Assembly (NCBI GenBank): GCA_040880705.1
Contig: JBBDHU010000001.1
Location: 315,573 to 379,572 of the forward strand
Direction: 5' to 3'
From: Actinomycetota bacterium
Lineage (GTDB): Bacteria > Actinomycetota > UBA4738 > JBBDHU01
DNA: 64,000 bases
Within the stretch, counting starts at the first letter, position 1. Each line of letters starts with the position of its first letter. The notes below the pieces were generated by a model that did no database searches, was not told the origin of the DNA, and worked only from the letters and a program-made list of their open reading frames with translations. Shown here piece after piece: positions 1 to 64,000 of the stretch. Made by a program: the position numbers and the translations under genes.

Positions 1-398
1 TTTCCCAGCAGGTCGGGTGTGGGGACGAAGATGTCGAAGTCGAGCTGCGCGCTCCTGATTTTCGCCAGCGCCTCGTCCGTGTTGTTGAAGGTGGATATCT
101 CCCAATTGATGTCGAAGTCCGCATATTTCTTCTTGAAGTCGTCCAGTACGGCCTTGTAGATGTACTGATCCCAGTTGTAGATCTTGAGGGTTGCCCCCTT
201 CTCGATCGGCAGATCGCTTGCGATCGGCTTGTTGTTGTCGTGAATCAGCCAACGAACCGGGCTGTCTCGCCGGGCGAGCGGGATGCTGGCGCCGGCGCCC
301 GAGGTGCCGGGCTTGCCGCAGGCCGCAAGGATCGCGCTGGCAAGCGGAACGCCTGCTGCAGTCGCCGCGGACCTACGGAGGAAATCACGGCGATTCAT
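1..398 (-). CDS. PotD/PotF-like polyamine-type ABC substrate-binding lipoprotein, 5' portion only (gene runs off the window start)
   Basis: Minus-strand ATG at 398..396 gives MNRRDFLRRSAATAAGVPLASAILAACGKP..., with a Tat RR motif and lipobox LAAC. Downstream DNA is roughly 75-80 percent identical to the 5' half of the complete paralog at 704..2044. Not in the ORF track because the window edge truncates it. Confidence 0.6.
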   Translation of the reverse strand, partial: MNRRDFLRRSAATAAGVPLASAILAACGKPGTSGAGASIPLARRDSPVRWLIHDNNKPIASDLPIEKGATLKIYNWDQYIYKAVLDDFKKKYADFDINWEISTFNNTDEALAKIRSAQLDFDIFVPTPDLLG

Positions 399-703
399 GC
401 GTCCGAAGCTCGGCTTCCAACGCGGGTGCGGTGCCATTCTCTCTCCCTTCAACCAGGACGGCCGGGTCATTGGTAGGCGGCCGTGAACGATTCCTAAGAA
501 TTCGCTGCTTCAATTATCACAAGCGACAAAGTACGCGCAACCCAACAAGGAGAGGCTCCGGACGAATCGCCTATCCCATGGGCTACCCACCCATGTTTCT
601 ACGGCAAGAGCCCTGTTTAGCCGTGGATTCCTCGATCGATGGTCGAGCACCGGACTAGGCAGGTCGAATTGGCCCGTGGCGGGTGGCTCCTGCCGCTCCG
701 ACT

Positions 704-2044
704 TCAGACCCCCGAGGCGAACCTCTCCCAGTTGTCGTGCCACATCGCGTCGACCTCGGGGCTGAGCCCGGTAAAGATCCACCCCTTGTCGAAGTCTTCT
801 GGAAGGACGATGGCGTTCTCGCCCAAGTGGGGCCAGTAGCAGACGATCCATCCCCATTTCCAGCCGCACTCGAGCAGCTCCTTCGGGTCGAGCTTCTGCT
901 GCGGCGGCTGGTAGCCCACCCAGCTGAAGTTCTTCATGGCGTGTTCGAACTCGAGTAAGTAGTCGAGGAATAGGTGTGCTAGGACGGGATTCCTCGCGTT
1001 CTTCAGGACGGCGACGAGGTCGTTTCCTATTAGCCCACGCTTGTCCTTCGGGTACCAGAACCCGAGGTCGGGGGCAGTGTGATAAGCGTTGGACTTCCCG
1101 TAGTAGGGAGCCGCGATGACGTCGCCCGACCAGGCTTGGTGCGCGGCGAAGACACCCCTCGGCAGCTGCTCGTAAGCGCCGTTGATCGTTAGTTGCACGT
1201 TGACCCTGTCGATCATTTCGATCAATGAGTCGGTTGCCCTCTCGACGACCGCCGGGTCGGTCGTGTTCAAGTCGACGCTGCCGGGGAACGTGCCGTCGTC
1301 GATCGCGTTCTTCATGATCCCGAAGTCGATGGCTTCGCTGTACACGTCGTACATACCTATCTTGCCCTTGTACTTGGGGTTCCAAAGAAGGTCATAGGGG
1401 TTCTTTCCCGCGTCCTCCAGCGCCGGTGGAGTGTCGCGCTCGTCGACGACGTCGCTCCTCCATTCGATCCCCGTTGTATAGACGGCATAGGGGACCGAGT
1501 ACCTCTGCCCCTGGTCGTAGTAAGGGTTCTCATCGCCCAGGAACTGCGGCCACAGCTCCTTGGTATGGGGCAGGTAGTCGTGATTCAGAGGCCGAATCAG
1601 CCTGAACTCGGTCAGTCGTCCGAGGAGGTCCGGGGTCGGGAAGAAGACGTCGAAGTCCACGTCGGTGCTACGGAGTTTCGCCTGAGCCTCGTCCAAGTTG
1701 TTGAACGTGGAGATCTCCCAGTCGACATCGTATTCCTCGTACTTCTTCGCGAAGTCGTCGAGGACCGCCTTGTAGATGTACTGGTCCCAGTTGTAGAGCT
1801 TCAGAGTCGCGCCCTTCTCGATGGGAAGGTCGCTCGGTATCGGCTTGTTGTCGTCGTAGATGGGCCATCTGACCGGCGAATCCTTCCTTGCGAGACGAAT
1901 GTTGGATCGTGGTCCGTTACCGGGCTTCCCGCATGCAGCGAGGATCGCGCTCGCCAGGGGGACGCCGGCCGCAGTTGCTGCCGATCGGCGGATGAAGTCG
2001 CGGCGATTGATCGGTTCCGGGCTCGGCTTCCAGCGGGGATGCAT
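704..2044 (-). CDS. Spermidine/putrescine-type ABC transporter substrate-binding lipoprotein (PotD/PotF family), Tat signal
   Basis: C-terminal 446 aa of the 867-aa minus ORF 704..3307. True start MHPRWKPSPEPINRRDFIRRSAATAAGVPLASAILAACGKP carries a twin-arginine motif plus lipobox. The body has PotD-like motifs (KLYNWDQYI, GYSVPY, WSGD). The N-terminal 421 aa of the tracked ORF is an antisense artefact over the crtI-like gene. Confidence 0.8.
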   Translation of the reverse strand: MHPRWKPSPEPINRRDFIRRSAATAAGVPLASAILAACGKPGNGPRSNIRLARKDSPVRWPIYDDNKPIPSDLPIEKGATLKLYNWDQYIYKAVLDDFAKKYEEYDVDWEISTFNNLDEAQAKLRSTDVDFDVFFPTPDLLGRLTEFRLIRPLNHDYLPHTKELWPQFLGDENPYYDQGQRYSVPYAVYTTGIEWRSDVVDERDTPPALEDAGKNPYDLLWNPKYKGKIGMYDVYSEAIDFGIMKNAIDDGTFPGSVDLNTTDPAVVERATDSLIEMIDRVNVQLTINGAYEQLPRGVFAAHQAWSGDVIAAPYYGKSNAYHTAPDLGFWYPKDKRGLIGNDLVAVLKNARNPVLAHLFLDYLLEFEHAMKNFSWVGYQPPQQKLDPKELLECGWKWGWIVCYWPHLGENAIVLPEDFDKGWIFTGLSPEVDAMWHDNWERFASGV

Positions 2045-2227
2045 ACGGGCTCCCTTCGCGCGTGCTCTGGCCGCTTTCTGGAACCAGCTAACAGAACGCG
2101 CCGCTCGGGCGCAACCCAGGGCACTTCCGCACGGGATCGCCGAAGGCTGCGTCGAGGGCGCGGCCGGTCGCGCGTTCGGCTTGTGGGGTATAACTTCTTC
2201 CTGTCCCGACCGAAGGATCATCCTTCC

Positions 2228-3850
2228 ATGCCGGCCAATATCTACGACGCCCTCATCGTCGGAGGAGGCCACAACGGCCTCATCTCGGGCGCCTACTTCG
2301 CACGCGCGGGCGCCAAGACCGTGGTCCTCGAGCGCCGGCACAAGACGGGCGGCGCCGCCGACACCAGTGCTCCGTTCGCCGATCATCCTGAGATCAACGT
2401 AACGACCTACTCGTACGTGATGAGCCTGATGCCCCCGACCATCATCAAGGAGCTCCAGCTCGAGAAGAACGGCTACGACGTGACCCCATTCGGGCCCTAC
2501 TACCAGGCCTACCCGGACGGGCGCTCGGTGAAGGTGTATCCCGACGACGCGAAGAAGAGCTACGACTCGATCGCGCAGTTTTCGAAGAAGGACGCCGAGA
2601 TCATGCCGAAGTGGGAGGAGTGGCTGGCCGGCGTGGCGGACGTCATGGGTCCTCTGCTTCTTCAGGTCCCTCCGAAGCTCGGCTCGATGAAGGTGGGAGA
2701 CCTGATCGAGAGCGCGAAGGTCGGATGGAAGATGCGCGGCCTGGGCGTGCGAGGCGTGGCCGACGTAACGCGGCTCTTCACGATGAGCGTCGCCGATCTC
2801 CTCGGCGATTGGTTCGAATCCGACCAGGTCAAGGGCATGCTCACGGTGAACGGCGTCATCGGAACCTGGGCAGGCCCCGAGGAGCCCGGCACGGCATACG
2901 TGATGCTGCATCACTCGATCGGAGACGTCGGCGACGGACACCTGGGAAGCTGGGGATTTCAGCAGGGCGGCATGGGCGGTGTCGCCGACGCATGCCGGAA
3001 GGCCGCGGAGTCGTTCGGCTGCGAGATCAGAACGAATTCCGGTGTCTCGAAGATCCTCACGGAGAACGGACGAGTCAAAGGAGTCGTTCTCGAGAATGGG
3101 GAGGAGCTTCGCGCGCCCACCATCGTGTCTACGATCCACCCTCAGATCGCTTTCCTCGATCTGATCGACAAGGAACAGCTGCCGGAGGAATTCGTCTGGG
3201 ACATCGAGCATTGGAAGACGCGAAGCGGCGTAGTGAAGGTGAACGTTGCCCTCTCCGAGCTGCCCGACTTCATCGCCGATCCCGGCAAGGAGATGCAGGA
3301 CATTCACACGGGTTCGGTCGAGCTCTGTTTCTCGCCCGAATACGCAGAGCGGGCGTTCCTGGACGCGAAAGAGGGACGTGCCGCCGAGCGGCCTTTCGTC
3401 GACGGGACCATCCCGACGACCCTCGACAAGAAGCTAGCTCCCGAGGGAGTGCATGTTTTCTCCATGTTCACGCAATGGGTTCCGCACTCGTGGGTCAAGG
3501 AGCCGCACCGCGACGAGCTGGAGGCATACGCCGACCGGATCATCGACATCTACTCGGAGCTGGCGCCGAACTTCAAGGGCGCGGTGATAGATCGGCAGGT
3601 GATCGGCCCCTACGACATGGAGCAAGACTTGGGGCTGATAGGCGGGAACATCTTCCAAGGGGAGTTGTCGGTCGATCAGCTTTTCCACATGCGTCCCTCA
3701 CCGGGCTACGCCGACTACCGAACACCGCTCAAAGGCCTCTATCACGGTTCGTCGGCGACACACGCCGGCGGCGGGGTCGTCGGCATCCCAGGCTGGCAGG
3801 CGTTTCGCCAGGCGAAGAAGGACCGGAAGGTGAAGAAGTCACGCGCCTGA
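2228..3850 (+). CDS. CrtI/phytoene-desaturase-family (COG1233, amine-oxidase fold) FAD-dependent oxidoreductase, paralog 1
   Basis: Start MPANIYDALIVGGGHNGLISGAYFARAGAKTVVLERRHKTGGAADT is a Rossmann FAD-binding GxGxxG motif. Conserved TYSYVMSLMPP, FSKKD and C-terminal LYHGSSATHAGGGV match the phytoene-dehydrogenase-related family. The 221-aa upstream extension in the ORF track overlaps potD and is not real. Confidence 0.8.
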   Translation: MPANIYDALIVGGGHNGLISGAYFARAGAKTVVLERRHKTGGAADTSAPFADHPEINVTTYSYVMSLMPPTIIKELQLEKNGYDVTPFGPYYQAYPDGRSVKVYPDDAKKSYDSIAQFSKKDAEIMPKWEEWLAGVADVMGPLLLQVPPKLGSMKVGDLIESAKVGWKMRGLGVRGVADVTRLFTMSVADLLGDWFESDQVKGMLTVNGVIGTWAGPEEPGTAYVMLHHSIGDVGDGHLGSWGFQQGGMGGVADACRKAAESFGCEIRTNSGVSKILTENGRVKGVVLENGEELRAPTIVSTIHPQIAFLDLIDKEQLPEEFVWDIEHWKTRSGVVKVNVALSELPDFIADPGKEMQDIHTGSVELCFSPEYAERAFLDAKEGRAAERPFVDGTIPTTLDKKLAPEGVHVFSMFTQWVPHSWVKEPHRDELEAYADRIIDIYSELAPNFKGAVIDRQVIGPYDMEQDLGLIGGNIFQGELSVDQLFHMRPSPGYADYRTPLKGLYHGSSATHAGGGVVGIPGWQAFRQAKKDRKVKKSRA

Positions 3851-3876: not shown

Positions 3877-5502
3877 TTGAGTGCTAATCAGTACGACGCG
3901 ATCGTGATCGGGGGCGGCCACAACGGTCTGTGCGCCGGCGCATACCTCGCGAAGAACGGCGCCAACGCCATAGTCCTGGAGAAGCGCCACAAAACCGGTG
4001 GCGCCGCCGACACCTCGGCCCCCTGGCCCGAGCACCCCGACTTCAAGGTCACGACCTATTCGTATGTCTCCGGGCTGATCCCTCCACGAGTCGTAAAGGC
4101 GCTTCAGCTGGAGAAGCACGGGTACAAGGTCCACCCTATGGGCCCCGTTTACCAAGCATGGCCCGACGGGCGTTCGATGATGTTTCAGTTGGGCAATGCC
4201 AAGGCAGGCAAGGACGAGATAGCGAAGTTCTCCAAGAAGGATTCCGAGGCGATCTTCGAATGGGAGGAATGGATCGGACGCATCGCCGACATCCTCGGGC
4301 CACTGCTCCTTTCCGTGCCGCCTAAGGTCGGCTCCAAGAGGCCCGGGGACGTTATCGACCAGGCGAAACTCGTGTGGCGGCTGCGAAAGGAGATCGACGT
4401 CCGCACGACTGCGCAGATCACCAAGCTAATGACGATGAGCCTCTCCGATCTCCTCGACGAGTGGTTCGAGTCGGATGAGATGAAGGGCGTGCTCGCGATC
4501 GACGGCGTGATTGGAACCTGGGCCGGGCCCGACGAGCCCGGAACGGCCTACGTCCTGGCACACCACGCGATCACCGATATTGGCGACGGCCTGCTCGGCA
4601 ACTGGGGATTCCCTGAAGGTGGCATGGGTGCCGTGGCCGATGCGTTCAGGCGTTCGGCCGAAGCGTTCGGATGCAGGATTCGAACCGAGGCCCCCGTAGA
4701 GAAGATCCTGATCGAGAACGGCAGGGCGAAGGGAGTCGTGCTTGCAGGCGGCGAGGAGCTTCGCGCGCCGGTCGTAGTTACGGCCTGCCACCCGCAAATC
4801 ACGTTCCTTCAGCAGATCGAACCCGAAGAGCTGCCGGACGATTTCGTTCGCGACATCGAGAAATGGAAATCGCGCAGCGGGACCGTGAAGATCAACCTGG
4901 CGCTTTCCGAACTGCCCAACTTCATAGCCGATCCCAACCCGCGCGACGGCAGCGTTCCGGAGCACCTGACGGGGTCGGTCGAGCTTTCGCTCTCTCCCAA
5001 GTACGTTGAACAGGCTTTCCAGGATGCGAAACAAGGGCGCGCGGCTACGGCGCCTTTCTCGGACGGGGTGATCCCGACGGTGATCGACAAGACGCTGGCA
5101 CCGGAAGGAGTTCACATCTTCTCGTTGTTCACACAGTGGTGTCCCCAGGAGTGGTCGACCGAGCCGCACACCGGCGAGCTGGAGGCCTACACCGACCGAA
5201 TCATCGACCTATACGACGGCCTGGCTCCCGGTTTCAAGGCCTCGGTCATCGCCCGTCAAACACTCGGCCCTCACGAGATGGAGGAGGAACTCGGCTTGAT
5301 CGGCGGCAACATATTCCACGGCGAACTCTCGGCCGATCAGCTCTTCCACATGCGCCCGGCGCCCGGTTTCGCGGACTTCCGTTCGCCGATCAAGGGTCTC
5401 TACCAAGCCCATTCCGGGACGCACGCCGGCGGAGGAGTGAATGGCATCCCCGCGTATCACGCGGTGCGCCAGATAAGAAAAGACAGAGCGCTAAAACGCT
5501 GA
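3877..5502 (+). CDS. CrtI/COG1233-family FAD-dependent oxidoreductase, paralog 2 (tandem to paralog 1)
   Basis: TTG start at 3877 preceded by AGGAG at 3866-3870. LSANQYDAIVIGGGHNGLCAGAYLAKNGANAIVLEKRHKTGGAADT. Colinear with paralog 1 over its full length. Confidence 0.8.
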   Translation: MSANQYDAIVIGGGHNGLCAGAYLAKNGANAIVLEKRHKTGGAADTSAPWPEHPDFKVTTYSYVSGLIPPRVVKALQLEKHGYKVHPMGPVYQAWPDGRSMMFQLGNAKAGKDEIAKFSKKDSEAIFEWEEWIGRIADILGPLLLSVPPKVGSKRPGDVIDQAKLVWRLRKEIDVRTTAQITKLMTMSLSDLLDEWFESDEMKGVLAIDGVIGTWAGPDEPGTAYVLAHHAITDIGDGLLGNWGFPEGGMGAVADAFRRSAEAFGCRIRTEAPVEKILIENGRAKGVVLAGGEELRAPVVVTACHPQITFLQQIEPEELPDDFVRDIEKWKSRSGTVKINLALSELPNFIADPNPRDGSVPEHLTGSVELSLSPKYVEQAFQDAKQGRAATAPFSDGVIPTVIDKTLAPEGVHIFSLFTQWCPQEWSTEPHTGELEAYTDRIIDLYDGLAPGFKASVIARQTLGPHEMEEELGLIGGNIFHGELSADQLFHMRPAPGFADFRSPIKGLYQAHSGTHAGGGVNGIPAYHAVRQIRKDRALKR

Positions 5503-5526: not shown

Positions 5527-7623
5527 ATGACGACCGTGACCAGGGATGCCGTTGCAACGATGCTCGAGGCTCGCTCCGTCGCTGTAGTTGGGGCTAGCCC
5601 GCGCGAGGGCTCGTTCGGCGAGATGATGATGCTCGAACTCACCCGCGCCGGGTTCGACGGTGACATATACCCGGTCAACCCCAAGTACGAGGAGATCCTC
5701 GGTCACCGCGCCTATCCATCCGTTTCGGAGGTGCCTGTTTCCGTGGACATCGCGATCCTCGGCGTATCGAACTCGAGGATCGAGGGGGCGCTAACGGAGG
5801 CCGCCGATTCGGGGGCGCGATCGGCCGCGATATTCGCCAGTTGCTACGAGGATCCCAAGGACGGGGTTCCGCCTCTTACGGAGAGGCTGGCCAAGATCGC
5901 TCGTGATGCCGGCATGGCGGTTTGCGGGGGCAACTGCATGGGCTTTCTCAACATGGAGAACGGACTACGCGTGTGCGGTTACGTCGAGCCGGAACGTCCC
6001 GCCGGGAGCGTTGCATTCATTAGCCATTCCGGGTCGGCGTTTTCCGCAATGGCTTACAACAACCGCGATCTGGAGTTCAACCTGCTGGTGTCTGCAGGGC
6101 AGGAGCTGGTGACGACCGCGGCCGACTACATGACCTATGCGCTCGAGCGCGAAAGCACCAAGGCCGTTGGTTTGTTCATAGAGACGGTGCGCGACCCCGA
6201 CAAATTCCACCTCGCACTCGAGCGAGCGGCGGAGCGCGACATCCCGGTGGTTGCTTTGAAGGTCGGCCGCGAGGAAGGCGCTCGCGAGATGGTTCAGGCG
6301 CATTCCGGCGCTCTTGCCGGAGAGGACGGCGCGTACGAGGCGCTCTTCGACGCGTATGGGGTTCAGAGGGTCAACAGTCTCCACGAGATGTGTGACACCC
6401 TCGAGCTGTTCACGAGAAACGGCCGCCGTGCGGGTCCCGGCGCGTTCGCTTCGATCCACGACTCGGGCGGGGAGCGCGCACTGATGATCGATTCGGCGGC
6501 CGAAGTCGGCGTCCCTTTCGCGCAGATTTCCGATGAGACGAAAAAACGGCTGGAGGAGAGTTTGGAGGAAGGCCTCCCGGCGGTGAACCCTCTCGACGCA
6601 TGGGGGACCGTGGAGGAGGCCCGGCGAGTGTTCACGGAATGCATCGAGGTGCTGCTGGACGATCCCGACACCGCCGCGCTTGCCTTCGCGGTGGACATGA
6701 CGTCCGAGGACGACGAGGAATTCTCCAACGCGGCATTCGCCGAGCGCACACTCGTGGACCGGGACAAGCCGGTCGCCGTGCTGTCCAACCTCTCGAGCGC
6801 CATCCACGCTCCGGACGCGAAAAAGCTGCGGGAGATCGGGATCCCCGTTCTCGAGGACACATTGACCGGCCTGGCGGCGTTCAAGCATCTCTTCGACTAC
6901 CGGGACTTCCACGCGCGGCCGCCGGCCGGCAAGGCGGCTCTTCCGGGCGACGACACTCGATCGCGCTGGCGAGAGCGGCTCTCAACCGGCGAACCGCTAG
7001 CGGAGGTGGAGGGACTGTCTCTGCTTTCCGATTACGGGGTGCCCGTTGTCGGCGCCGAGCCCGCCGCTTCGGCCGAGGAGGCTAGAGCCGCAGCCGAAAA
7101 GGTTGGTTACCCCGTTGCCGTCAAGACGGCTGAGCCGGGAGTGCTGCACAAGTCGGACGCGGGGGGAGTGAAGCTGGGCCTTGAGACCGATGAAGATGTG
7201 TCAGCCGGGTATGAAGAGCTGGCGGCGAGTCTCGGCCCGAGGGTCGTGGTCGCGCCGATGGTGTCCCCCGGGGTTGAGTTCGCCCTCGGTGTCGTGCGCG
7301 ACCCGCAGTTCGGTCCGCTCGTGCTGGTGGCCGCCGGCGGGATATTCGTTGAACTCTTGAAGGATCGCCGGCTGGCGTTGCCCCCGGTCGACGAAGCGGG
7401 TGCGCGAAGGTTGTTGGATGGTTTGAAGACGCGCCCGCTGTTGGACGGGGTCAGGGGGGCGCCGTCCGCCGATATCGATTCGATCGCGCGTGCGATCGTC
7501 GCCGTTTCCTCACTCGCATCAGACTTGGGAGAGCATCTGGAGGCGCTCGACGCGAATCCGTTGATTGCGGGGCCGGACGGCTGCGTCGTGGTCGACGCGC
7601 TGGTCATCCCGCGGCGCGTCTAG
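5527..7623 (+). CDS. Acetate--CoA ligase (ADP-forming) / NDP-forming acyl-CoA synthetase family, CoA-binding plus ATP-grasp domains
   Basis: N-terminal CoA-binding domain (SVAVVGASPREGSFG...YPVNPKY...GGNCMG). C-terminal ATP-grasp (GYPVAVKTAEPGVLHKSDAGGVKLGL). 698 aa. Follows the two crtI-like genes with a 24-nt gap. Confidence 0.75.
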   Translation: MTTVTRDAVATMLEARSVAVVGASPREGSFGEMMMLELTRAGFDGDIYPVNPKYEEILGHRAYPSVSEVPVSVDIAILGVSNSRIEGALTEAADSGARSAAIFASCYEDPKDGVPPLTERLAKIARDAGMAVCGGNCMGFLNMENGLRVCGYVEPERPAGSVAFISHSGSAFSAMAYNNRDLEFNLLVSAGQELVTTAADYMTYALERESTKAVGLFIETVRDPDKFHLALERAAERDIPVVALKVGREEGAREMVQAHSGALAGEDGAYEALFDAYGVQRVNSLHEMCDTLELFTRNGRRAGPGAFASIHDSGGERALMIDSAAEVGVPFAQISDETKKRLEESLEEGLPAVNPLDAWGTVEEARRVFTECIEVLLDDPDTAALAFAVDMTSEDDEEFSNAAFAERTLVDRDKPVAVLSNLSSAIHAPDAKKLREIGIPVLEDTLTGLAAFKHLFDYRDFHARPPAGKAALPGDDTRSRWRERLSTGEPLAEVEGLSLLSDYGVPVVGAEPAASAEEARAAAEKVGYPVAVKTAEPGVLHKSDAGGVKLGLETDEDVSAGYEELAASLGPRVVVAPMVSPGVEFALGVVRDPQFGPLVLVAAGGIFVELLKDRRLALPPVDEAGARRLLDGLKTRPLLDGVRGAPSADIDSIARAIVAVSSLASDLGEHLEALDANPLIAGPDGCVVVDALVIPRRV

Positions 7624-8148: not shown

Positions 8149-9324
8149 CTAGGCCGGCCAGTCGGTATAGATCCCGGCCCCGCGTTTCTTCAGCTCGTTT
8201 CCTATGACGAGACGCTGGATCTCGGACGTGCCCTCCCAGATTCGGTCGACGCGGATCTCGCGCCATAGGCGCTCGACCGGCTGCTCGCGCATGTAGCCGC
8301 GGCCGCCGAAGATCTGCACGGCGTCGTCGGTGACCCTGCCTGCCGTCTCGGAGCAGACGAGCTTCACCGCGGATGCCAGGGCGTGGATCTCTTTGCGATC
8401 GGCCTCCGTCCGGGAAGCCTGCATCCCCGCGCGGTACAGGAGAGATTTCGCGGCCATGATTCCCGCGGCCATGTCAGCAAGCATGAACTCGATCCCCTGA
8501 AAATCGATTATCGGTTCGCCGAATTGCACGCGCGTCTTAGCGAACTCCAAAGAGAGATCGAGGGCACGCGTCGCCGCGCCCACCGTTCGCGCGCCGATCA
8601 TCAGTCGCTCCTCCACGAACCAGTCCTTCGTTAGCTCGTAGCCGCGGCCAATTCCACCAAGGACCTTGTCTTCTCCGACGCGGACGCCGTCGAACTCGAA
8701 GATCGGATGCTCGAAGTAAGCCGTGTGCGTGTACTTGGGCGTGCGAACCTCTCGGATTCCGGGCAGGTCCTTGTCGACCAGGAATATCGTCGCCTTGCCG
8801 GGATCGCCGTCAACATGTGCATGAACCAAGATGAAGTCGGCTATGTCGCCGGCGGTCACGTGCCACTTGGTCCCGGTGATGACCCAATAGTTCCCGTCCC
8901 TCGTCGCAGTGGTCTTGATCATCGTGGGATCCGAGCCTGCATCTTCTTCCGTGATCGCGTAGCAGTCCCGTCGATCACCTCGGCAGGCGGGTCGCAGATA
9001 TTCCTCTTTTTGTTTGTCAGTGCCCTCGGCAAGAACGTTCGAAGGGTGCCAGGGGATCGCCCATAGGCAGTTGGTTGCCTTCCCCAGCTCCTCCTCGATC
9101 AGGATCTGCTGGAAGGTGCTCAGTCCCTGCCCGCCCTCCTGTTTGGAATGGTTGATCGCGTTCAGTCCGTAGCCGGGGACGGCTCGCCGGATCGTCTGAA
9201 TGCTGGTTTCGGACAGCCCGCCGTTCTCCTCGCATTCCTGTTCGTACGGAAAGAGGTACTTCTCCGTGAACTCCCGGGCCCGCTTCTTGAGTTCCCGGTC
9301 GGCTTCACTCAGTTGCAGGTCCAC
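8149..9324 (-). CDS. Acyl-CoA dehydrogenase
   Basis: Full ACAD architecture, with the active-site region YMREQPVERLWREIRVDRIWEGTSEIQRLVIG. Start placed at GTG (VDLQLSEADRELKKRAREF), which is preceded by GAGGAGA. ACADs canonically begin MDFxLSEEQ. Confidence 0.8.
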   Translation of the reverse strand: MDLQLSEADRELKKRAREFTEKYLFPYEQECEENGGLSETSIQTIRRAVPGYGLNAINHSKQEGGQGLSTFQQILIEEELGKATNCLWAIPWHPSNVLAEGTDKQKEEYLRPACRGDRRDCYAITEEDAGSDPTMIKTTATRDGNYWVITGTKWHVTAGDIADFILVHAHVDGDPGKATIFLVDKDLPGIREVRTPKYTHTAYFEHPIFEFDGVRVGEDKVLGGIGRGYELTKDWFVEERLMIGARTVGAATRALDLSLEFAKTRVQFGEPIIDFQGIEFMLADMAAGIMAAKSLLYRAGMQASRTEADRKEIHALASAVKLVCSETAGRVTDDAVQIFGGRGYMREQPVERLWREIRVDRIWEGTSEIQRLVIGNELKKRGAGIYTDWPA

Positions 9325-9376
9325 TGCGGTTCTCCTCGCCTTGTGGTACTTGTGACGCATCCTAATTGGAGGCGTT

Positions 9377-49989: not shown

Positions 49990-49990
49990 G

Positions 49991-54466: not shown

Positions 54467-55648
54467 TTGTCAGCACAGGAAGACGTCTGGCCGAGCACCG
54501 ACCTCTACTTCGGGCCGTGGTACCGGCGTTCGCCATATTTCGAGGCGACACTGCGCGCCGGAGCCAAGGCCTACGACATCTACAACCACATGCTCTTGCC
54601 CGGCTACTACGACGACCCGAACGTCGAGTACGAAGCGATGATCAACGACGTCGTCGTCTGGGATGTCGCGGTTGAGCAGACCGTGGAAATCGCCGGCCCC
54701 GACGCCGATCGTTTGATCGACAGGATCACCTGCCGCGATTTGACGAAGTGCGCGGTCAAGCAGGGCAAGTACATGCTCGTTACCGCGCCGGACGGCGGCA
54801 TCGTCAACGACCCCGTTCTTCTGCATGTCGGCGAGAACCGCTGGTGGATGCAGCTCGCGGATTCCGACGCCGGACTGTACGCGCTCGGCGTCGGACAGGC
54901 AGGGGGATACGATGCGCAGGTCTCGTTTCCTCACGCGTACCCGATGCAGGTGCAAGGTGCGAAGTCCGCGAAGACGCTCGAGAAGCTGGTCGGGCCAGCC
55001 ATCTACGACCTCAAGTACTACTGGTGCGACTTCTTCGAGATCGAAGGCATTCCCGTTCTCATAAGCCGGACCGGCTACACGGCCCTGCCGGGCTTCGAAG
55101 TGAACATCCTCGAAATGGAACGCGGAACTCAGCTCTGGGACGCGGTGTTCGCGGCCGGGGAGGAGTTCAACATCCGCGCCGCCGCGCCGAACATGGCCAG
55201 GCGCATCGAGGCCGGGATCATGAACTACGGCTCCGACATGGACATCGAGAACAATCCCTTCGAGATCATGGGCTTCGAGCGTCTCGTCGAGGAACAGAGT
55301 CAGGACTACATCGGCAAGGAGGCTCTCGAACGGATTCGCCGCGAGGGTGTTAGCCGCAGGCTGGTCGGAATCGGGATCGACGGCGACGAGATCGAGGCGG
55401 ATCCCGAGGACTTCTGGCCGGTTCGCTCCGGAGGAAAGGAAGTCGGCAAGGTGACGGACGCCGTCTGGTCCCCGCGCCTGAAGAAGAACATCGGTTACGT
55501 ATGGGTGCCCGTTGAATTGTCCGAGCCGGGAAACAGGCTGGAGATCGAGTCAGAGAACGGTTCGCTCACGGGGACGACGGCGGCGATCCCGTTCGTCGAC
55601 CCGAAGAAGGAAGTCCCGGCCGGCTCGCTCGCTTCGCAGAAAACCTGA
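54467..55648 (+). CDS. GcvT-family aminomethyltransferase-like protein, copy 2
   Basis: TTG start 6 nt after AAGGAGG. LYFGPWYRRSPYFEAT... GCV_T fold (ISRTGYTALPGFE). 393 aa. Confidence 0.75.
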   Translation: MSAQEDVWPSTDLYFGPWYRRSPYFEATLRAGAKAYDIYNHMLLPGYYDDPNVEYEAMINDVVVWDVAVEQTVEIAGPDADRLIDRITCRDLTKCAVKQGKYMLVTAPDGGIVNDPVLLHVGENRWWMQLADSDAGLYALGVGQAGGYDAQVSFPHAYPMQVQGAKSAKTLEKLVGPAIYDLKYYWCDFFEIEGIPVLISRTGYTALPGFEVNILEMERGTQLWDAVFAAGEEFNIRAAAPNMARRIEAGIMNYGSDMDIENNPFEIMGFERLVEEQSQDYIGKEALERIRREGVSRRLVGIGIDGDEIEADPEDFWPVRSGGKEVGKVTDAVWSPRLKKNIGYVWVPVELSEPGNRLEIESENGSLTGTTAAIPFVDPKKEVPAGSLASQKT

Positions 55649-55658: not shown

Positions 55659-56834
55659 TTGACAGAAATAGGAGGACCCGCGAAGGCGCCGCCTGCGGCC
55701 GGCCGCACGAGGCTGTACTTCGGTCCGTGGTATCAGAAGTCGCCCTTCTTCGAGGCGACGAGGCGCGCCGGATGCTCCGCTTACGACATCTACAACCACA
55801 TGTATCACCCGAACTCTTACGGCGATCCCGAGGAGGAGTACCAGGCCCTGATCAACGACGTGACGCTCTGGGACGTGGCGGTCGAGCGAATCGTCGAGAT
55901 CTCCGGACCGGACGCGACGGAGCTCACCAACATGCTGACCTGTCGCGACCTCACCAAGTGCGATGTCAAACAGTGCAAGTACATGCTTGTGACTGCGCCC
56001 GACGGCGGGATCGTCAACGATCCGGTCTTGCTTCGGATCGAAGAGAACAAGTGGTGGATGGCGCTGTCGGATTCCGACGCAGGTCTCTATGCGCTCGGCG
56101 TGGCGGCCGAATCGGGTCTGAACGCCGAGGTCACACACCCCGAGGTCTATCCGGTTCAGGTCCAGGGGCCGAAATCGAAGGAAACGATGCGCGACCTGTT
56201 CGGAGACTGGGTCCTCGACATGAAGTACTACTGGTGCGAGGAGACGGACCTCGATGGCATACCGGTCGTGATCAGCCGTACCGGCTGGACGGCAGTCGTC
56301 GGTTACGAGATCTACCTGAGGGACCCGTCTAGAGGCGACGACCTCTGGGAGAAGATCCTCGAGGCCGGGAAGCCACACAATATACGAGTTACGCCGTCAT
56401 CCGACATCCGCCGCATCGAGGCGGGTATTTACGACTACGGATCCGATTTGTCGATCGACACAAACCCCTTCGAGGCGATGGGACTGGAACGCTTGGTCGA
56501 AGAGCAGGAGGCCGACTACATCGGCAAGGACGCCCTGGAAAGGATTCGCCGGGAGGGCGTGACGCGCAAGATAGTCGGGATCGAGATCGAGGGCGACCCG
56601 CAGGGGCAGCCGCCCGACCACCTGCCGGCGTTCAGCGGCGGCGAACGGGTCGGCTACGTGACCGACATCGCCTACTCGCCCCGGCTCGAGAAGAACATCG
56701 GGTACGTCTGGGTTCCGATCGATCTGGCCGAACCGGGCAACGAGCTCGCGGTTGAATCACCGCAAGGAACGCTCAAGGGCAAGACCGCCTCCGTTCCGTT
56801 CATCGACCCGAAGAAGAAGGTTCCGGCCCAGTAG
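55659..56834 (+). CDS. GcvT-family aminomethyltransferase-like protein, copy 3 (tandem paralog of copy 2)
   Basis: TTG start 5 nt after GAGGAGG. LYFGPWYQKSPFFEAT... Colinear with copy 2 throughout. Confidence 0.75.
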   Translation: MTEIGGPAKAPPAAGRTRLYFGPWYQKSPFFEATRRAGCSAYDIYNHMYHPNSYGDPEEEYQALINDVTLWDVAVERIVEISGPDATELTNMLTCRDLTKCDVKQCKYMLVTAPDGGIVNDPVLLRIEENKWWMALSDSDAGLYALGVAAESGLNAEVTHPEVYPVQVQGPKSKETMRDLFGDWVLDMKYYWCEETDLDGIPVVISRTGWTAVVGYEIYLRDPSRGDDLWEKILEAGKPHNIRVTPSSDIRRIEAGIYDYGSDLSIDTNPFEAMGLERLVEEQEADYIGKDALERIRREGVTRKIVGIEIEGDPQGQPPDHLPAFSGGERVGYVTDIAYSPRLEKNIGYVWVPIDLAEPGNELAVESPQGTLKGKTASVPFIDPKKKVPAQ

Positions 56835-58777: not shown

Positions 58778-58987
58778 TCGACGCAGTATGGACGGCGAGC
58801 GAGATATCACTCGCGCGCACCTGGTGCGCCGCTTCGCAATCGGGATCCTGCTCATGGGGGGACGGGGTTAGGGCTTCATCTGGTCAAGGTCCTGCTCGAC
58901 GACCTCGGCGGGACCGTCTCCGTCTCGGGCAACCTTGGCGAGGGGAGCACCTTCACCGTCCGGCTGCCCCGCGCGCGGCCCAGTTAG
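58778..58987 (+). pseudogene. Remnant of a histidine-kinase HATPase_c C-terminus (about 70 codons, no HisKA/sensor part)
   Basis: Frame reads ...[44 protein letters not shown]-stop, which is the G2 box and C-terminal tail of the HATPase_c domain. It is preceded by in-frame stops and overlaps the 3' end of betA on the other strand. Confidence 0.45.
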
Positions 58988-60642
58988 TCGCGCGCATACC
59001 GGTAGAAGCCGACTCCCTCCGCAGGCAGCGGCGTGTTTCCGAGGATCAGGTCGGCAGCTTTTTCCGCCACCATCATCACCGGTGCGTAGATATTGCCGTT
59101 CGTCACATAGGGCATCACCGATGCATCCACGACGCGAAGTCCCTCCAGGCCTTGCACCTTCATGGCGAGGGGGTTCACCACCGACATGTCGTCCACTCCC
59201 ATCCGCGCGGTGCACGAGGGGTGCAAAGCGGTTTCGGCGTCACTCGCGACCCACTCGAGGATCTGCTCGGGTGTCGAGACGCCCGGCCCGGGTGAAAGCT
59301 CCCCATCGTTGAACGGATCGAACGCCGGCTGCGTGAGGATCTTGCGGGCGACGTGGACGGCTTCCACCCACTCCCTGCGGTCCTGTTCCGTCGATAGGTA
59401 GTTGAAGACCAGTGCGGGGTGTTCCCTCGGGTCTGCACTCTTGATCTTTATCGAACCGCGAGCGTCCGAGTACATCGGCCCCACGTGCACCTGGTACCCG
59501 TGAGCGCTTGCGGGGGCCGATCCGTCGTATCGCACCGCGATCGGCAGGAAATGGAACATCAGGTTCGGGTATGCGACCTCGTCGTTGCTTCGAACGAACC
59601 CTCCCGCCTCGAAATGGTTCGTCGCGCCCGGTCCCTTCCGGAAGAACAGCCACTGGAAGCCGACCCAGGGGCGCCATCTCCATTTCATGTAAGGCGCGAC
59701 CGAGACGGGCTGCTTGCACGCGTATTGAACGTAGACCTCCAAGTGATCCTGAAGGTGTTCGCCGACGCCCGGCAGATCGTGGACGACCTCGACTCCCAAT
59801 CCTTCGAGTTCGTGGGCGTTCCCGACCCCCGAGACCTGCAGAACCTGAGGTGAGTTGATCGCCCCACCGCAAAGAACGACTTCCCCGGCCTCCACCGTCT
59901 GGGCCGAACCCCTGCGCCGTTCGTACTCGACGCCTACGGCGCGCGTGCCGTTGAAGAGGATTCTCGAGACGAAGGCCCGCGTCTCGACTTCCAGGTTTTT
60001 CCGCTCCATCACGGGATGCAGGTACGCCCTTGCGGCGGACAGTCGCCGGCCGTTGTGGATGTTGCGGTCGAAGGCCGCGAAGCCCTCCTGCTGGTAGCCG
60101 TTGACGTCTTCCGTGATCGGGTATCCCGCTTGCTGAACCGCCTCGAAGAACGCCCCGAACAATGGAGTGGTGGCCGGACCTCGCTCGAGAACCAACGGCC
60201 CGGCGTGCCCGCGGAACTCGTCGTCGCGTGCGGCCGCGAGGCAGCTCTCCATTCGCTTGAAGTAGGGGAGACAGTGCGCGTAGTCCCAGGTCTCCATGCC
60301 GGGGTCAGATGCCCACCGCTCGTAATCCATCGGGTTCCCGCGCTGGAAGATCATGCCGTTGATGCTGCTGGAGCCGCCGAGCACCTTGCCCCTCGCGTGA
60401 TAGATGCGCCTGCCGTTCATGTGGGGCTCGGGCTCGGACTCGTATTTCCAGTCGTAGAACTTGCTTCCTATCGGAAACGGCAAGGCCGCCGGCATGTGTA
60501 TGAAGACGTCCCAGATGTAGTCCGGGCGCCCGGCCTCCAGAACCAGAACGCTGTTCGAGGAATCCGCACTAAGGCGGTTCGCCAGCGCGCATCCGGCCGA
60601 ACCTCCGCCGATGATCACGAAGTCGTAACTCTTCGGCGCCAT
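58984..60642 (-). CDS. betA: GMC-family choline dehydrogenase
   Basis: [23 protein letters not shown] motif. GMC signatures ([15 protein letters not shown]-terminal HPSCTARMG...VVDASVMP). Confidence 0.85.
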
Positions 60643-60827: not shown

Positions 60828-61871
60828 GTGCGGGCGGTGGAGGAAGCGTCGTCGCCTGATGTGACGGTCTCGTGCCGGAACGCCTGGAAGGTCTACGGCC
60901 CCGATCCGGAGCGCATCGTGGGCTCCTCGGACGCCGACTTGCCGAGAGGCGAACTTCTCGAAAAGACCGGCTGCGTCGTCGCCGTTCGCGACGTCTCCTT
61001 CGAAGTTGCAACCGGGGAGGTCTTCGTCGTGATGGGCTTGTCGGGATCCGGCAAGTCCACGTTGGTACGCATGATCAACCGTATCCACGAGCCCACCGAG
61101 GGCGAAGTCCTGATAGACGGCGAAGACCTGCTCGAGGCCGGCAAGGAGAGGCTGCGCGACATCCGCCGCCAGAAGATAAGCATGGTGTTCCAGCACTTCG
61201 GGCTTCTGCCGCACCGCCGGATCGTCGAGAACGTCGCCTTCGGCCTGGAGATACAAGGAATGGACAAAGACGAGCGGACCGTCTCGGCAGGGGCGGTCCT
61301 GAACAAGGTCGGTCTCGAGGGGTGGGGCCAGTCCTTCCCGGACGAGCTTTCCGGCGGAATGCAACAGCGGGTTGGCCTTGCCCGCGCTCTTGCCAACGAT
61401 CCCGAGATCCTGCTGTTCGACGAGCCGTTCAGCGCCCTCGATCCGCTGATCCGGCGCGACATGCAAGACGAGGTGCTGAAACTCCAGCGGGAAGTCCGAA
61501 AGACGATGATCTTCATCACCCACGACCTGGCAGAGGCGCTCAAGCTCGGTGACCGGATCGCGATCATGAAGGACGGACGGTTCGTCCAGGTGGACACGCC
61601 CGAGCGCGTGGTCAGCCACCCGGCGAACGACTACGTCGCGGATTTCATCCGAGATGTGCCGCGGGCGCACGTTCTGACCGCGCAGTCGATCATGCGGCCG
61701 GCGGACGGGTTGCAGGGCGACGGTCCGACTGTTTCCCCGGAGACGGTCGTCCAGGACCTGATCCCCATGGTCGCGCAGGCGGACCTGACGATTCGTGTCG
61801 TGGACAACGGCAACGTACTGGGCGTCGTGGACCGGGGCGCGGTCATGTCGGCACTCGTCGAGGAGCGCTAG
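60828..61871 (+). CDS. proV: Glycine betaine/proline-type ABC transporter ATP-binding protein (ProV/OpuAA-like)
   Basis: Walker A GLSGSGKST. LSGGMQQRVGLARAL signature. Walker B ILLFDEPFSALD. C-terminal CBS-like tail. GTG start. Confidence 0.85.
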   Translation: MRAVEEASSPDVTVSCRNAWKVYGPDPERIVGSSDADLPRGELLEKTGCVVAVRDVSFEVATGEVFVVMGLSGSGKSTLVRMINRIHEPTEGEVLIDGEDLLEAGKERLRDIRRQKISMVFQHFGLLPHRRIVENVAFGLEIQGMDKDERTVSAGAVLNKVGLEGWGQSFPDELSGGMQQRVGLARALANDPEILLFDEPFSALDPLIRRDMQDEVLKLQREVRKTMIFITHDLAEALKLGDRIAIMKDGRFVQVDTPERVVSHPANDYVADFIRDVPRAHVLTAQSIMRPADGLQGDGPTVSPETVVQDLIPMVAQADLTIRVVDNGNVLGVVDRGAVMSALVEER

Positions 61872-63914
61872 GTGGCGGTAGCACCTCCCCGCGCCCGGCT
61901 GCCGGTGGCAACGGGCGAAGTCCCGTTGCTGCGGGCCGAACCGAGTCCTTGGCGTCGCAGGGCCGTATGGGCGGTGGCCGTCGTGGCCGTCATCTGGGCG
62001 GGACGGGCGATGTTCGCGCCCGGGTTCCCGCAACGATGGGTGGTCGACGTAACGGGATGGTTCGACGCGTTTCGGGATTGGGCGATCCTGAATCGCACTA
62101 CGAGCCCGCTCTTCGTGTACTTCCTCACACCGATCGAGGACGCCGCAACCGCGGTGGTGACGTCGACGGTCACCCTTCTGGAACGAATGACCTGGACCGG
62201 CCTGGTCGTGACCGCCTCGGCGATCGCAGGATTGGTCGCGGGATGGCGCATGGCCGTTCTCACCTTCGCGGGAGTGCTGGCCTTCGGCGTGCTGGGCGTC
62301 TGGGAGGAGAGCCTAATCACGCTGGCCCTGGTGCTCGTCGCGGTGATAATCGCCCTCATCATCGGCATTCCGGTCGGCATCTGGGCCGGGCGCAGGCCCC
62401 GAGTCGAGAGAACTCTTCGGCCGATCCTCGACGCGTTGCAGACGATACCGGCCTACTCGTATCTTCTCCCCGCGGTGCTGCTGTTCGGCATCGGCGAGGC
62501 CCCCGCTTTGATCGCAACGATGGCGTTCGCGTTGCCCCCGGCAATCAGGCTGACGGCGCTCGGGATCCGAAACGTCCCGAAGACATCCTTGGAAGTCGCC
62601 GATGCATTCGGCTCCACGCCGAGGCAGTCCCTTCGCCTGGTTCAGGTGCCGCTGGCAAAGCACTCGATCATGCTGGGCGTCAACCAGACGATCATGATGG
62701 CTCTCGGGCTGGTCGTGATCGCGGCGTTCGTCGGCGCGGGCGGGCTCGGGCAATCCGTGCTCGACGGGTTGCAGCGGTTGAACGTCGGAGAGGCGTTGAA
62801 CGGCGGCATCGCGATCGTCGTGATGGCCATCGTGCTCGATCGGGTGACGACCGCGTGGAGCCGTCGCGATCGCAAGCGGCTGCGGCCTCTGGTCGTGGCC
62901 GGGCGCACCCTGACGAGGCGGCGGGTGCTCATTGCTGCGGTGCTCGTGTCGGTCGCCGCGGTCGTCGTGGGGCGCCAGGTCCTGCAGCAGCAGGATTTCC
63001 CGGAGGGCTTGGAGGTGTCCGTGGCCACCCCCGCGAACGCCGTGGTCGAGTGGTCCCAGACGACCCTGGGCGGCGTCACCAGCGCAACCAGCGACTTCAT
63101 GCTGATCTACCTATTGGACCCGCTCGAGCGCCTGGCCGTCGATCTGCCGTGGTGGGTAATCGGCGGAGGCGTCGCGCTCGCGGCCCTGCGGATGTCCGGC
63201 GGCCGGCTCGCGGTGGGGCTGTTCGCCTGCGTCGCCGCGCTCGGGTCGCTCGGCATGTGGAACTTCGCCATGGCGACTGTGAGCCAGGTCCTTGTGGCCG
63301 TCGCCATCACGATCGTCGTGGCGATCCCCCTGGGAATACTCGCCGCGAAGAGCGATGCATTCGAACGGGTATCGAAACCGATCCTCGACGCCATGCAGAC
63401 GATGCCGGCGTTCGTGTACATCGTTCCGGTGTTGTTTCTGGTCGAGCCCGGCCGCGTTCCGGCGATCATCGCATCGTTCGTCTACGCGCTTCCGGTCGGA
63501 ATCCGGCTGACGAACCTGGGGATCCGTCAGGTCCCGAATGAGATCGTGGAGGCGGCGAAGGCGTTCGGCGCGACCTCCTGGCAGGTGCTGCGCAAGGTGG
63601 AGCTGCCTTTGGCCAAGCCGTCGATTCTGCTCGGAATCAACCAGACGATTATGATGGTGCTCTCAGTCGTGATCATCGCGGGTTTGATAGGCGCTGCCGG
63701 ACTCGGCCAGGAGGTCGTGTTCGCCCTGGGCAAGCAGCAGATCGGCCGGGGCGTGGTCGCCGGTGTCAGCATCCTGCTCCTCGCCATTGTCCTCGACCGG
63801 CTCACGCAGGCCATGGGCGCGGCGGCACGCACGATGCGGGGCCCCGTGGGGATCGGCATTGGGTGGTGGACCCGCGTAAAGGCGATCACAGTAGGAGCAC
63901 CGGATAACGGTTAG
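61872..63914 (+). CDS. proW: Glycine betaine-type ABC permease, tandemly duplicated/fused (two ProW-like BPD_transp_1 domains in one 680-aa protein)
   Basis: Two internal repeats each containing the EAA-like loop ([32 protein letters not shown] and [32 protein letters not shown]). GTG start 1 nt after the proV stop. Confidence 0.8.
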
Positions 63915-63930
63915 GGAGAGAGGAGGAGGC

Positions 63931-63999
63931 ATGAGAGCAGGAAAGTTGACGGGAGTTCTCGCGGTCCTCGCGACGCTCTCGGTGCTTGCCGCGGCATGC
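63931..63999 (+). CDS. Start of a lipoprotein gene, probably the cognate ProX/OpuAC-type substrate-binding protein (truncated by window end)
   Basis: GGAGAGAGGAGGAGG RBS, then MRAGKLTGVLAVLATLSVLAAAC (signal plus lipobox) directly downstream of proVW. Confidence 0.45.
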   Translation, partial: MRAGKLTGVLAVLATLSVLAAAC

Positions 64000-64000
64000 A

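Follow-up and report, generated by a model that had tools for sequence, protein, structure and literature searches.

We analysed a 64,000-nt stretch of the genome of an Actinomycetota bacterium (positions 315,573–379,572 of contig JBBDHU010000001.1, assembly GCA_040880705.1), referred to here as the window, in which the same few gene families recur: five flavoproteins described as CrtI-like, along with proteins resembling GcvT, PotD and LivJ, class-III aminotransferases and histidine kinases. An earlier reading of the sequence (the original prediction) had explained this density of paralogs by recent duplication within a single lineage. The data presented below suggest instead that several old catabolic modules lie side by side in the window and that its CrtI-like genes encode bacterial homologues of the human protein PYROXD2.

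Gene families in the window

The window has a GC content of ∼ 64% and is rich in shadow open reading frames (ORFs). Genes were called with a codon log-odds model, which yielded ∼ 54 genes (g01b was added separately), families were compared by all-versus-all BLASTP and domains were assigned by Pfam scans; this procedure reproduced the family counts and coordinates of the original prediction.

The five flavoproteins, each of ∼ 535–540 amino acids (aa) with Amino_oxidase/NAD_binding_8 domains, are encoded on the plus strand by g02 (2228–3850), g03 (3877–5502, with a TTG start), g09 (12589–14211), g12 (16568–18184) and g44 (52852–54456). Four of them (g02, g03, g12 and g44) are mutually 54–63% identical in BLASTP alignments and g09 is 42–44% identical to these four. 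All five lie in tightly packed gene sets. In the set g02-g03-g04, the flavoproteins are followed by an ADP-forming (NDP-forming) acyl-CoA synthetase, g04 (5527–7623, plus strand), which has the Pfam domains CoA_binding_2, Succ_CoA_lig and ATP-grasp_5 and scores below the NCBIfam cutoffs. Beyond it, on the minus strand, lies an acyl-CoA dehydrogenase identified by Pfam, g05 (8149–9360), whose best NCBIfam matches, none of which reaches its cutoff, are of the acryloyl-CoA reductase and crotonobetainyl-CoA dehydrogenase types. The operon g09-g10-g11-g12-g13, headed by g09, includes a GbcA-like Rieske oxygenase alpha subunit, g10 (14261–15394, plus strand), with Pfam domains Rieske and Ring_hydroxyl_A and an NCBIfam GbcA score of 175 bits vs. 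a cutoff of 670; its start is taken as ATG 14261, giving 377 aa, and the gene caller had picked GTG 14354. The same operon ends with g13 (18195–19583, plus strand), a class-III aminotransferase of the omega-amine type (Pfam Aminotran_3, 274 bits) that falls below all NCBIfam equivalog cutoffs. The third set, g44-g45-g46, is headed by g44 and is syntenic in a sibling metagenome-assembled genome (MAG).

Three proteins, all encoded on the plus strand, contain the GCV_T and GCV_T_C domains: g11 (15417–16565), g45 (54467–55648) and g46 (55659–56834). The last two are 62% identical to each other and resemble DmdA, with g45 also matching the DmdA structure 3tfh at 245 bits, whereas g11 is just 24–25% identical to either and resembles the C-terminal domain of the trimethylamine N-oxide demethylase (NCBIfam Tdm 224 bits and GcvT 172 bits, both below cutoff). 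Thus, all three belong to the GcvT/aminomethyltransferase superfamily, with its folate-binding GCV_T domain and GCV_T_C barrel, and score below its characterized equivalogs: g45, g46 and g11 reach 321, 314 and 98 bits with the DmdA model (NF009133, cutoff 410) and 110–136 bits with the glycine-cleavage T protein model (TIGR00528, cutoff 235.85 bits), and the window contains no gcvH or gcvP.

The PotD/PotF-like lipoproteins of the SBP_bac_8 family also number three, all on the minus strand: g01 (3–470), represented only by its N-terminal part because it is truncated at the left edge of the window, g01b (704–2044), which has a TAT/lipoprotein signal, and g07 (9899–11185). The first two are 77–78% identical to each other and g07 is 42–49% identical to both. 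Their scores of 39–63 bits are far from the PotD and PotF equivalog cutoffs (582/636), so that only the general SBP_bac_8 fold is supported, with 63 bits for g01b and 26 bits (threshold 27) for g07.

For the aminotransferases g13 and g40 (26% identity), the LivJ-like g34 and g35 (25% identity, divergently transcribed) and g11 relative to g45/g46, the relatedness is at the superfamily level only and unremarkable as paralogy. The histidine kinases g08 and g38, said to have near-identical tails, share 51.5% identity across the C-terminal 233 aa (the catalytic part), so that claim was overstated. The DNA-level similarity reported among the copies is real, amounting to 66–74% over whole genes in self-BLASTN comparisons.

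A sixth flavoprotein (P0023 / MEX1046073), 72% identical to g44 and 67% to g12, is encoded ∼ 13 genes to the left of the window, its position being derived from the accession numbering, which is collinear in the two sibling MAGs. The paralog-dense region therefore reaches past the left edge of the window. The clustering is non-random: by our estimate, random placement would put far fewer than six members of a single family into ∼ 70 genes.

CrtI-like proteins are homologues of PYROXD2

All five window flavoproteins align with human PYROXD2 (the query was exactly NP_116098.2 / UniRef100_Q8N2H3) over their full length (∼ 550 columns) with scores of 333–385 bits. The best match is g09, with 40% identity over 548 columns (385 bits, E = 3e-132, BLASTP), and the other four copies are 38–39% identical to the human protein (39% for g02). 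In the neighbour-joining (NJ) tree, which had no CrtO outgroup, PYROXD2 nests among the bacterial sequences as a sister to those of loci L038 and L047, near sequences from Bdellovibrionales, Pseudomonadota and sphingomonads, and certain bacterial proteins (the 'first-copy' proteins of Module C, described below, and related loci) are 41–45% identical to it. A flatworm protein named PYROXD2 in UniRef ranked 29th of the 150 matches when the window copies and related sequences were used as a profile. The family is very large, with ∼ 3,500 clusters at 50% identity with E ≤ 1e-30.

The NCBIfam score pattern is the same for PYROXD2 and the window copies. PYROXD2 scores 267 bits with the CrtO model and the window copies score 215–265 bits (cutoff 1000), and the latter also fall below cutoff with crtI_fam (TIGR02734; 78–146 vs. 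238 bits) and with CrtD/CrtISO (50–104 vs. 550–640 bits). Pfam Amino_oxidase (PF01593) is above its gathering threshold in all five (30–60 vs. 19.8 bits), with matches that are often partial. The GGGHNGL motif of the N-terminal FAD-binding Rossmann fold is invariant and the g09 model described next has the three-domain fold of CrtI; being superfamily-wide, these features are non-discriminating. Solved structures are all distant, the best match by sequence being CrtI (78 bits). The AlphaFold2 model of g09, with a predicted local distance difference test (pLDDT) score of 81 and a predicted template modelling (pTM) score of 0.87, best matches CrtD (4rep, TM 0.75, 17% identity), followed by CrtI (4dgk) and then by a second tier of monoamine oxidase, the nicotine oxidase NicA2 and putrescine oxidase (TM 0.53–0.61).

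No carotenoid-pathway neighbours (phytoene synthase, GGPP synthase or cyclase) were found among the scanned window genes or among the called genes of loci L001 and L082–L084. A carotenoid role of the flavoproteins was rejected on the basis of the score thresholds and this gene context. Human PYROXD2 itself is ∼ 35% identical to CrtO, and tests for carotenoid activity were negative (PMC12010460). Little is known of what exactly the protein does; biallelic variants lead to a mitochondrial disorder (PMC8777681). The PYROXD2 locus is a metabolite quantitative trait locus (QTL) for urinary trimethylamine (TMA) and plasma dimethylamine (DMA), lower expression going with higher levels (PMC3169529), and PYROXD2 has been associated with N2-acetyl-N6,N6-dimethyllysine (PMC13352909). 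The papers that we searched contained no link of PYROXD2 to demethylation, no account of its bacterial gene context, and nothing relevant that pairs phytoene dehydrogenase or desaturase with GcvT, DmdA, Rieske or betaine, or COG1233 with amines.

One member of the family, P0377 (816 aa, from a Logan assembly, a singleton cluster), is a eukaryote-like fusion of an N-terminal GFA domain (PF04828, glutathione-dependent formaldehyde-activating enzyme) with a PYROXD2-like domain. It hints at a release of formaldehyde in the flavoprotein reaction; however, as the sole fusion among the top 150 family representatives and a single unverified gene model, it is too weak to count as evidence. No GFA homologue was found in any bacterial locus.

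Age and origin of the copies

The original prediction held that the adjacent copies arose by relatively recent tandem duplication. Such an origin is not supported because synonymous divergence is saturated, adjacent copies are no closer than dispersed ones and foreign relatives are closer still. The dS values (Nei-Gojobori) are 1.05–1.85 for all pairs, and neither the adjacent g02/g03 and g45/g46 nor g01/g01b, the most similar of all, is an exception. In self-BLASTN comparisons, the adjacent g02 and g03 show 68.7% nucleotide identity vs. 66–67% for the dispersed pairs g03/g12 and g03/g44, so that adjacency adds next to nothing to DNA similarity. The NJ tree comprised the window copies and 118 members of the family encoded in 83 foreign loci. 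In this tree, each window flavoprotein was placed in its own clade with foreign sequences, and any given pair of window flavoproteins was exclusive in only 0–2 of the 100 bootstraps.

Flavoprotein pairs within the window top out at 63% identity, which is below the foreign relatives of g02, g12 and g44. For g44, there are at least 119 cluster representatives from other organisms at 65–77% identity; relatives of g12 elsewhere are 67–82% identical and the closest relative of g02 (locus L019) is 78% identical. Similarly, g45 has at least 80 relatives in soil metagenomes at 67–80%, compared with 62% identity to g46. With these closer relatives elsewhere, and with multi-copy clusters and tandem pairs occurring across phyla, the claim of a lineage-specific expansion is refuted for the flavoproteins and for g45/g46. 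Lineage-specific duplication is retained for one pair, the PotD-like g01/g01b, for which no relative above 59% identity was found beyond the two sibling MAGs; this looks like a lineage-restricted tandem duplication that is old rather than recent. Taken as a whole, the arrangement very probably consists of ancient modules rather than recent duplicates.

Base composition gave no sign of a foreign origin. GC content is 0.60–0.67 all along the window, and the GC content at third codon positions (GC3), which the original prediction had proposed to compare between the paralog-rich stretches and the ilv/leu core, is 0.80 in the catabolic genes, 0.81 on average in the window and 0.845 in the branched-chain amino acid (BCAA) biosynthesis core; the catabolic genes are thus native in composition, and the higher value of the core is as expected for highly expressed genes. 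The window contains no tRNA genes, no integrase or transposase was found among the window genes scanned against Pfam and NCBIfam, and megablast of positions 1–25000 against PLSDB gave no plasmid match. A horizontally acquired genomic island was considered and ruled out by the native composition, with no tRNA gene and no mobility genes among those scanned.

Sibling MAGs

A 604,491-bp contig of a MAG labelled 'Actinomycetota bacterium' encodes proteins with 100% identity to g12 (P0121) and to g01b; this contig is present under two accession series and its accession numbers are collinear with the window gene order. On a 191,619-bp contig of the sibling MAG GCA_040878365.1, genes g36 to g52 follow one another as they do in the window. 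Since the gene order repeats in an independent assembly, the clustering is real and reproducible across assemblies, and it is larger than the window.

Nucleotide identity to the sibling, measured between locus L001 and positions 42855–63877, is 97.5% for g36–g49, 93% for betA and 69% for proV/proW. At the protein level, the sibling enzymes encoded by g36–g42 and g44–g49 are 97–100% identical, that of g43 91% and BetA 96%, and the binding proteins g01, g01b and g07 are 94% (P0217), 80% and 64% (P0270) identical, respectively. It thus seems that, between these close relatives, it is the transport components that change fast or are replaced.

Conserved modules in other genomes

A scan of species-representative genomes revealed at least 594 loci with the flavoprotein family, of which the best 80 were analysed, ∼ 21 kb each. 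Clustering of neighbourhood ORFs was badly contaminated by antisense shadow ORFs and only Pfam-confirmed clusters were kept. Two or three flavoprotein copies occur within ∼ 21 kb in 35 of the 80 loci. A GcvT homologue is found in 37 loci, in 18 of them directly beside the flavoprotein gene, and a GbcA-like Rieske gene in 26; at least one of the two is present in 49 of the 80 loci. Less frequent neighbours are the ADP-forming acyl-CoA synthetase (12 loci, directly adjoining the flavoprotein gene in 10), the PotD-like binding protein (12) and the class-III aminotransferase (11). An APC amino-acid permease recurs in 16 loci, mostly in Acidobacteriota, and a DAO flavoprotein in eight.

Three arrangements could be distinguished. 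Module A consists of a binding protein, an ATP-binding cassette (ABC) transporter, a g02-type flavoprotein, an acyl-CoA synthetase, an acyl-CoA dehydrogenase, a Rieske protein and an aminotransferase; the part from the binding protein to the acyl-CoA dehydrogenase, in this order, is the module of the g02 orthologues. Its carriers include Acidimicrobiia, Streptosporangiaceae, Rubrobacteraceae and the cultured Mycolicibacterium chubuense (L017). In Module B, a g03/g44-type flavoprotein is joined to a g46-type GcvT protein; g03 groups in the NJ tree with the proteins of L007, L012, L018 and L036, and a g46-like GcvT gene is adjacent in the last three. Module C (Rieske, GcvT and two flavoproteins in a row) is found in Acidobacteriota, Gemmatimonadota, Chloroflexota and Planctomycetota, and its tandem is ancient because the two copies form two separate deep clades in the NJ tree. 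Altogether, module conservation spans Actinomycetota, Acidobacteriota, Gemmatimonadota, Chloroflexota, Planctomycetota and Pseudomonadota.

Links to folate metabolism extend beyond GcvT. In locus L082 (10001–13303), a relative of g44 (70% identity) lies immediately upstream of a three-domain formiminotransferase-cyclodeaminase, and in the metagenome loci L086 and L108 the flavoprotein is kept beside a g45-type GcvT gene. In the actinobacterial MAGs L022 and L023, a family member is also found beside ilvD-ilvBNC; because of this shared arrangement, the genome studied here is not the only one in which the family lies close to the BCAA core. Thus, judging by sequence and gene order, the CrtI-like genes of the window are bacterial PYROXD2 homologues in conserved, putatively folate-linked and amine-catabolic modules.

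A different arrangement was seen in 80 soil loci (L085–L164), most of which have the order [Rieske] - diverged GcvT - g45-type GcvT; the Rieske gene is often present, and in most of these loci the stretch recovered contains no PYROXD2-like gene. In two annotated soil loci (L091 and L102), an Amidohydro_3 amidohydrolase gene lies before the cassette, and genes for methylenetetrahydrofolate reductase (MTHFR) and an HtrA-like protease come after it. This is an undescribed, predicted folate-dependent demethylation cassette.

Other genes and features

The BCAA core separates the g09–g13 operon from the g44–g46 operon and occupies positions 22080–36226 on the plus strand with ilvD, thrC, ilvB, ilvN, ilvC, leuA, leuB and a cimA/leuA-like gene, assigned by Pfam and NCBIfam. 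It is broken by three minus-strand or unrelated genes, encoding a saccharopine-dehydrogenase-like protein, an AAA_14/DUF4143 ATPase and a cupin. The saccharopine-dehydrogenase-fold gene within the ilv cluster (24931–26148, minus strand) has carboxynorspermidine synthase as its best match (179 bits vs. a cutoff of 800) and possibly encodes a polyamine-related enzyme. To the left of the core, on the minus strand, lie a threonine/serine-dehydratase-like pyridoxal-phosphate enzyme, g14, and a DAO-family FAD oxidoreductase, g15 (19580–21966 together), with NCBIfam scores of 358.5 bits vs. 371 for g14 and 373 bits vs. 633 ('aminophosphonate oxidoreductase') for g15. The membrane histidine kinase g08 (11348–12538, plus strand; HisKA and HATPase_c) precedes g09.

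To the right of the core are the LivJ-like Peripla_BP_6 binding proteins g34 (minus strand) and g35 (plus strand), at 40393–42755, and the GAF-PAS histidine kinase g38 (45430–47121, plus strand). They are followed by g40 (47656–49989, plus strand), a fusion of an APH-type kinase with a class-III aminotransferase (PRK06148, 775 bits vs. an NCBIfam cutoff of 1128); it recalls hydroxylysine-kinase/phospholyase-type pairs, and the next gene is NAGPA phosphodiester-glycosidase-like. A SAM-I/IV riboswitch (RF01725, 49.1 bits vs. a gathering score of 41.1) lies at 43926–44046 on the plus strand, flanked by the methyltransferase gene g36 and by the 3' end of g37, a DEAD-box helicase gene on the minus strand. 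There is no obvious plus-strand gene right after it, the nearest being g38 at 45430, and it may be an orphan or antisense-acting.

The right end of the window is occupied by betA (58984–60642, minus strand), encoding choline dehydrogenase (TIGR01810, 839.5 bits vs. a cutoff of 732), and by a choline/betaine ABC transporter (60828–63914, plus strand) that consists of the ATPase ProV/ChoV (373 vs. 326.6 bits) and a fused double permease ChoW/ProW (465 vs. 363 bits), all above their NCBIfam equivalog or subfamily cutoffs. The permease gene (g52) has an internal duplication (62421–62752 / 63378–63709, 68% nucleotide identity), and in the sibling MAG an OpuAC binding protein comes after choVW.

Interpretation and alternatives

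The theme of amines and osmolytes suggested in the original prediction fits the gene content (PotD-like proteins, GbcA-like Rieske protein, DmdA/Tdm-like GcvT proteins, class-III aminotransferases, betA and ChoW/ProV), and the region is, as was proposed, a good hunting ground for enzymes of unknown function. In our view, with a probability of roughly 0.6, the paralog density reflects several anciently diverged, separately conserved catabolic operons for methylated amines that lie side by side, flank the native ilv/leu core, adjoin betA-choVW and share one toolkit: a PYROXD2/CrtO-like FAD oxidoreductase, a DmdA-/Tdm-like GcvT protein, a GbcA-like Rieske protein, a PotD-type binding protein or transporter, an ADP-forming acyl-CoA synthetase with an acyl-CoA dehydrogenase, and a class-III aminotransferase.

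By analogy with characterized enzymes, we tentatively propose, at somewhat less than even odds, a stepwise N-demethylation with folate as the one-carbon acceptor. Each operon would take up a different methylated amine, quaternary ammonium compound or polyamine through a PotD- or Cho-type transporter. The first methyl group would be removed from the onium or quaternary centre by a Rieske oxygenase, as by GbcA, or by a DmdA-like tetrahydrofolate (THF) methyltransferase, and the MTHFR neighbours in relatives would fit a 5-methyl-THF product. PYROXD2-like flavoproteins might then oxidize the remaining N-methyl C-N bonds of tertiary and secondary amines, the one-carbon unit being passed to THF by the Tdm-/GcvT-like proteins in the way known from dimethylglycine oxidase and sarcosine oxidase. 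The class-III aminotransferase could remove the final primary amine, CoA ligation and dehydrogenation would process the carbon skeleton, and the neighbouring betA-choVW would supply glycine betaine from choline. That the PYROXD2 family as a whole, bacterial and human, consists of oxidative N-demethylases of small tertiary and secondary methylamines in folate-linked one-carbon pathways, with five to six substrate-specialized copies here, is a conjecture that we advance with considerable doubt.

Several observations weigh against this interpretation. We know of no demonstrated substrate for any member of the flavoprotein family, and DmdA-type enzymes work without a flavoprotein. The MTHFR neighbour fits methyl transfer to 5-methyl-THF better than formaldehyde capture, and the link between the flavoprotein and GcvT may reflect a shared pathway only, without a physical couple. 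The window showed no reductase partner for the Rieske protein g10. GcvT and Rieske genes are missing from about half of the foreign loci, among them the loci of the bacterial proteins closest to PYROXD2 (L038 and L047, the latter on a short contig), and the 80-locus sample is skewed to relatives of g44. Furthermore, the trees are neighbour-joining only, and the synteny comparison covers the sibling MAGs and no other close relative. Finally, the nearest solved structures are the carotenoid C-C desaturases CrtD and CrtI and not amine oxidases, and for this reason C-C desaturation or saturation chemistry is equally possible.

The last point leads to an unlikely but serious alternative, in which the PYROXD2-like proteins would be C-C bond enzymes (desaturases, saturases or isomerases, cf. 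CrtI, CrtD, CrtISO and RetSat) acting on CoA-activated or lipid-like intermediates, and the GcvT-like proteins independent methyltransferases of the DmdA/LigM type. The fold matches to CrtD and CrtI and the top NCBIfam match to CrtO agree with this, as do the acyl-CoA synthetase directly beside the flavoprotein in 10 of the 80 loci, the acyl-CoA dehydrogenase nearby and the MTHFR gene after the g45-type GcvT in the two annotated soil loci, which fits flavoprotein-free methyl transfer. On the other hand, the carotenoid models remain far below their cutoffs, no carotenoid-pathway domain was seen among the scanned window genes, PYROXD2 lacked carotenoid activity (PMC12010460), and Pfam Amino_oxidase is above its gathering threshold. 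Human genetics also ties PYROXD2 to small N-methyl amines (PMC3169529; PMC13352909), and GcvT or Rieske genes accompany the flavoprotein in most of the analysed loci (49/80).

The original prediction itself, i.e. recent tandem and dispersed duplication followed by neofunctionalization into a lineage-specific catabolic island, could draw on the recurrence of the families, the DNA similarity detectable over whole genes, the isolation of g01/g01b and the exact g02-g03 tandem, which was not seen in any other locus examined. We consider it improbable: it conflicts with the saturated dS, the equal similarity of adjacent and dispersed copies, the 0–2 bootstraps for exclusive pairs, the foreign relatives of g02, g12, g44 and g45 at 67–82%, the multi-copy modules kept across phyla and the native composition, and is largely refuted for the flavoprotein and GcvT families. 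An artefact of assembly or binning (chimeric contigs or collapsed strains) might be suspected given that the source is a MAG and that identity to the sibling is uneven along the region (97.5%, then 93%, then 69%). It is highly improbable in view of the same gene order in the independent assembly GCA_040878365.1, the window-identical proteins and collinear accession numbering of the 604,491-bp contig, and the 42–63% identity of the copies, far too divergent for strain collapse.

Soil Actinomycetota often cluster catabolic operons, so that paralog density by itself is ordinary, and replacing a recent expansion by ancient modules placed side by side is mostly a matter of housekeeping. The main value of the region lies in the identity of its CrtI-like genes, members of a very large flavoprotein family that includes human PYROXD2, whose role in methylamine metabolism has been an unanswered question since the 2011 metabolite-QTL study. 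Their recurring linkage to folate one-carbon enzymes, quaternary-amine oxygenases and amine transporters offers a concrete, testable biochemical hypothesis, and the bacterial members are tractable proteins with a culturable carrier, M. chubuense. If the proposed role is true, these operons would for the first time place in a functional context an enzyme with a human orthologue that controls the levels of TMA, DMA and dimethyllysine and causes an infantile mitochondrial disorder.

Comparison with known systems

Human PYROXD2 resembles the window copies in length, in single-domain architecture, in its 38–40% end-to-end identity and in its score pattern with the carotenoid models, and its genetic association with TMA, DMA and dimethyllysine (PMC3169529; PMC13352909) matches the amine-catabolic context described here. 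It differs in being eukaryotic, mitochondrial, single-copy and outside any operon, whereas the bacterial proteins are multi-copy, diverged and encoded beside GcvT, Rieske and transporter genes. The CrtI, CrtD and CrtO proteins belong to the same FAD Rossmann superfamily and fold as the window flavoproteins and provide their best structural matches (4rep and 4dgk); however, those structures are 17% identical and the scores with the corresponding models are below cutoff.

Dimethylglycine oxidase/dehydrogenase and the heterotetrameric sarcosine oxidase also pair flavin-dependent amine oxidation with a GcvT-family folate unit, and the window GcvT-like proteins match these folate domains at 50–101 bits. 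In those enzymes, however, the flavoprotein has a DAO fold and is fused to or complexed with the folate domain, whereas here it would be a separate PYROXD2/CrtO-like protein. DmdA is the known protein most similar to g45 and g46 (314–321 bits in NCBIfam; 245 bits for 3tfh), and the MTHFR gene after g45-type genes in the two annotated soil loci recalls the THF-dependent demethylation pathways of DmdA, LigM-type THF methyltransferases and MetF. Unlike DmdA, g45 and g46 are below the cutoff of 410, form a tandem pair beside a flavoprotein and come from an actinomycetotal MAG and not a marine alphaproteobacterium. With GbcAB/BmoAB, g10 shares the Rieske and Ring_hydroxyl_A domains, GbcA being its best match; it differs in its score (175 vs. 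670 bits) and in that no GbcB-type reductase is encoded in the window. Of the bet/cho choline pathway, both betA and choVW are present and score above their cutoffs.

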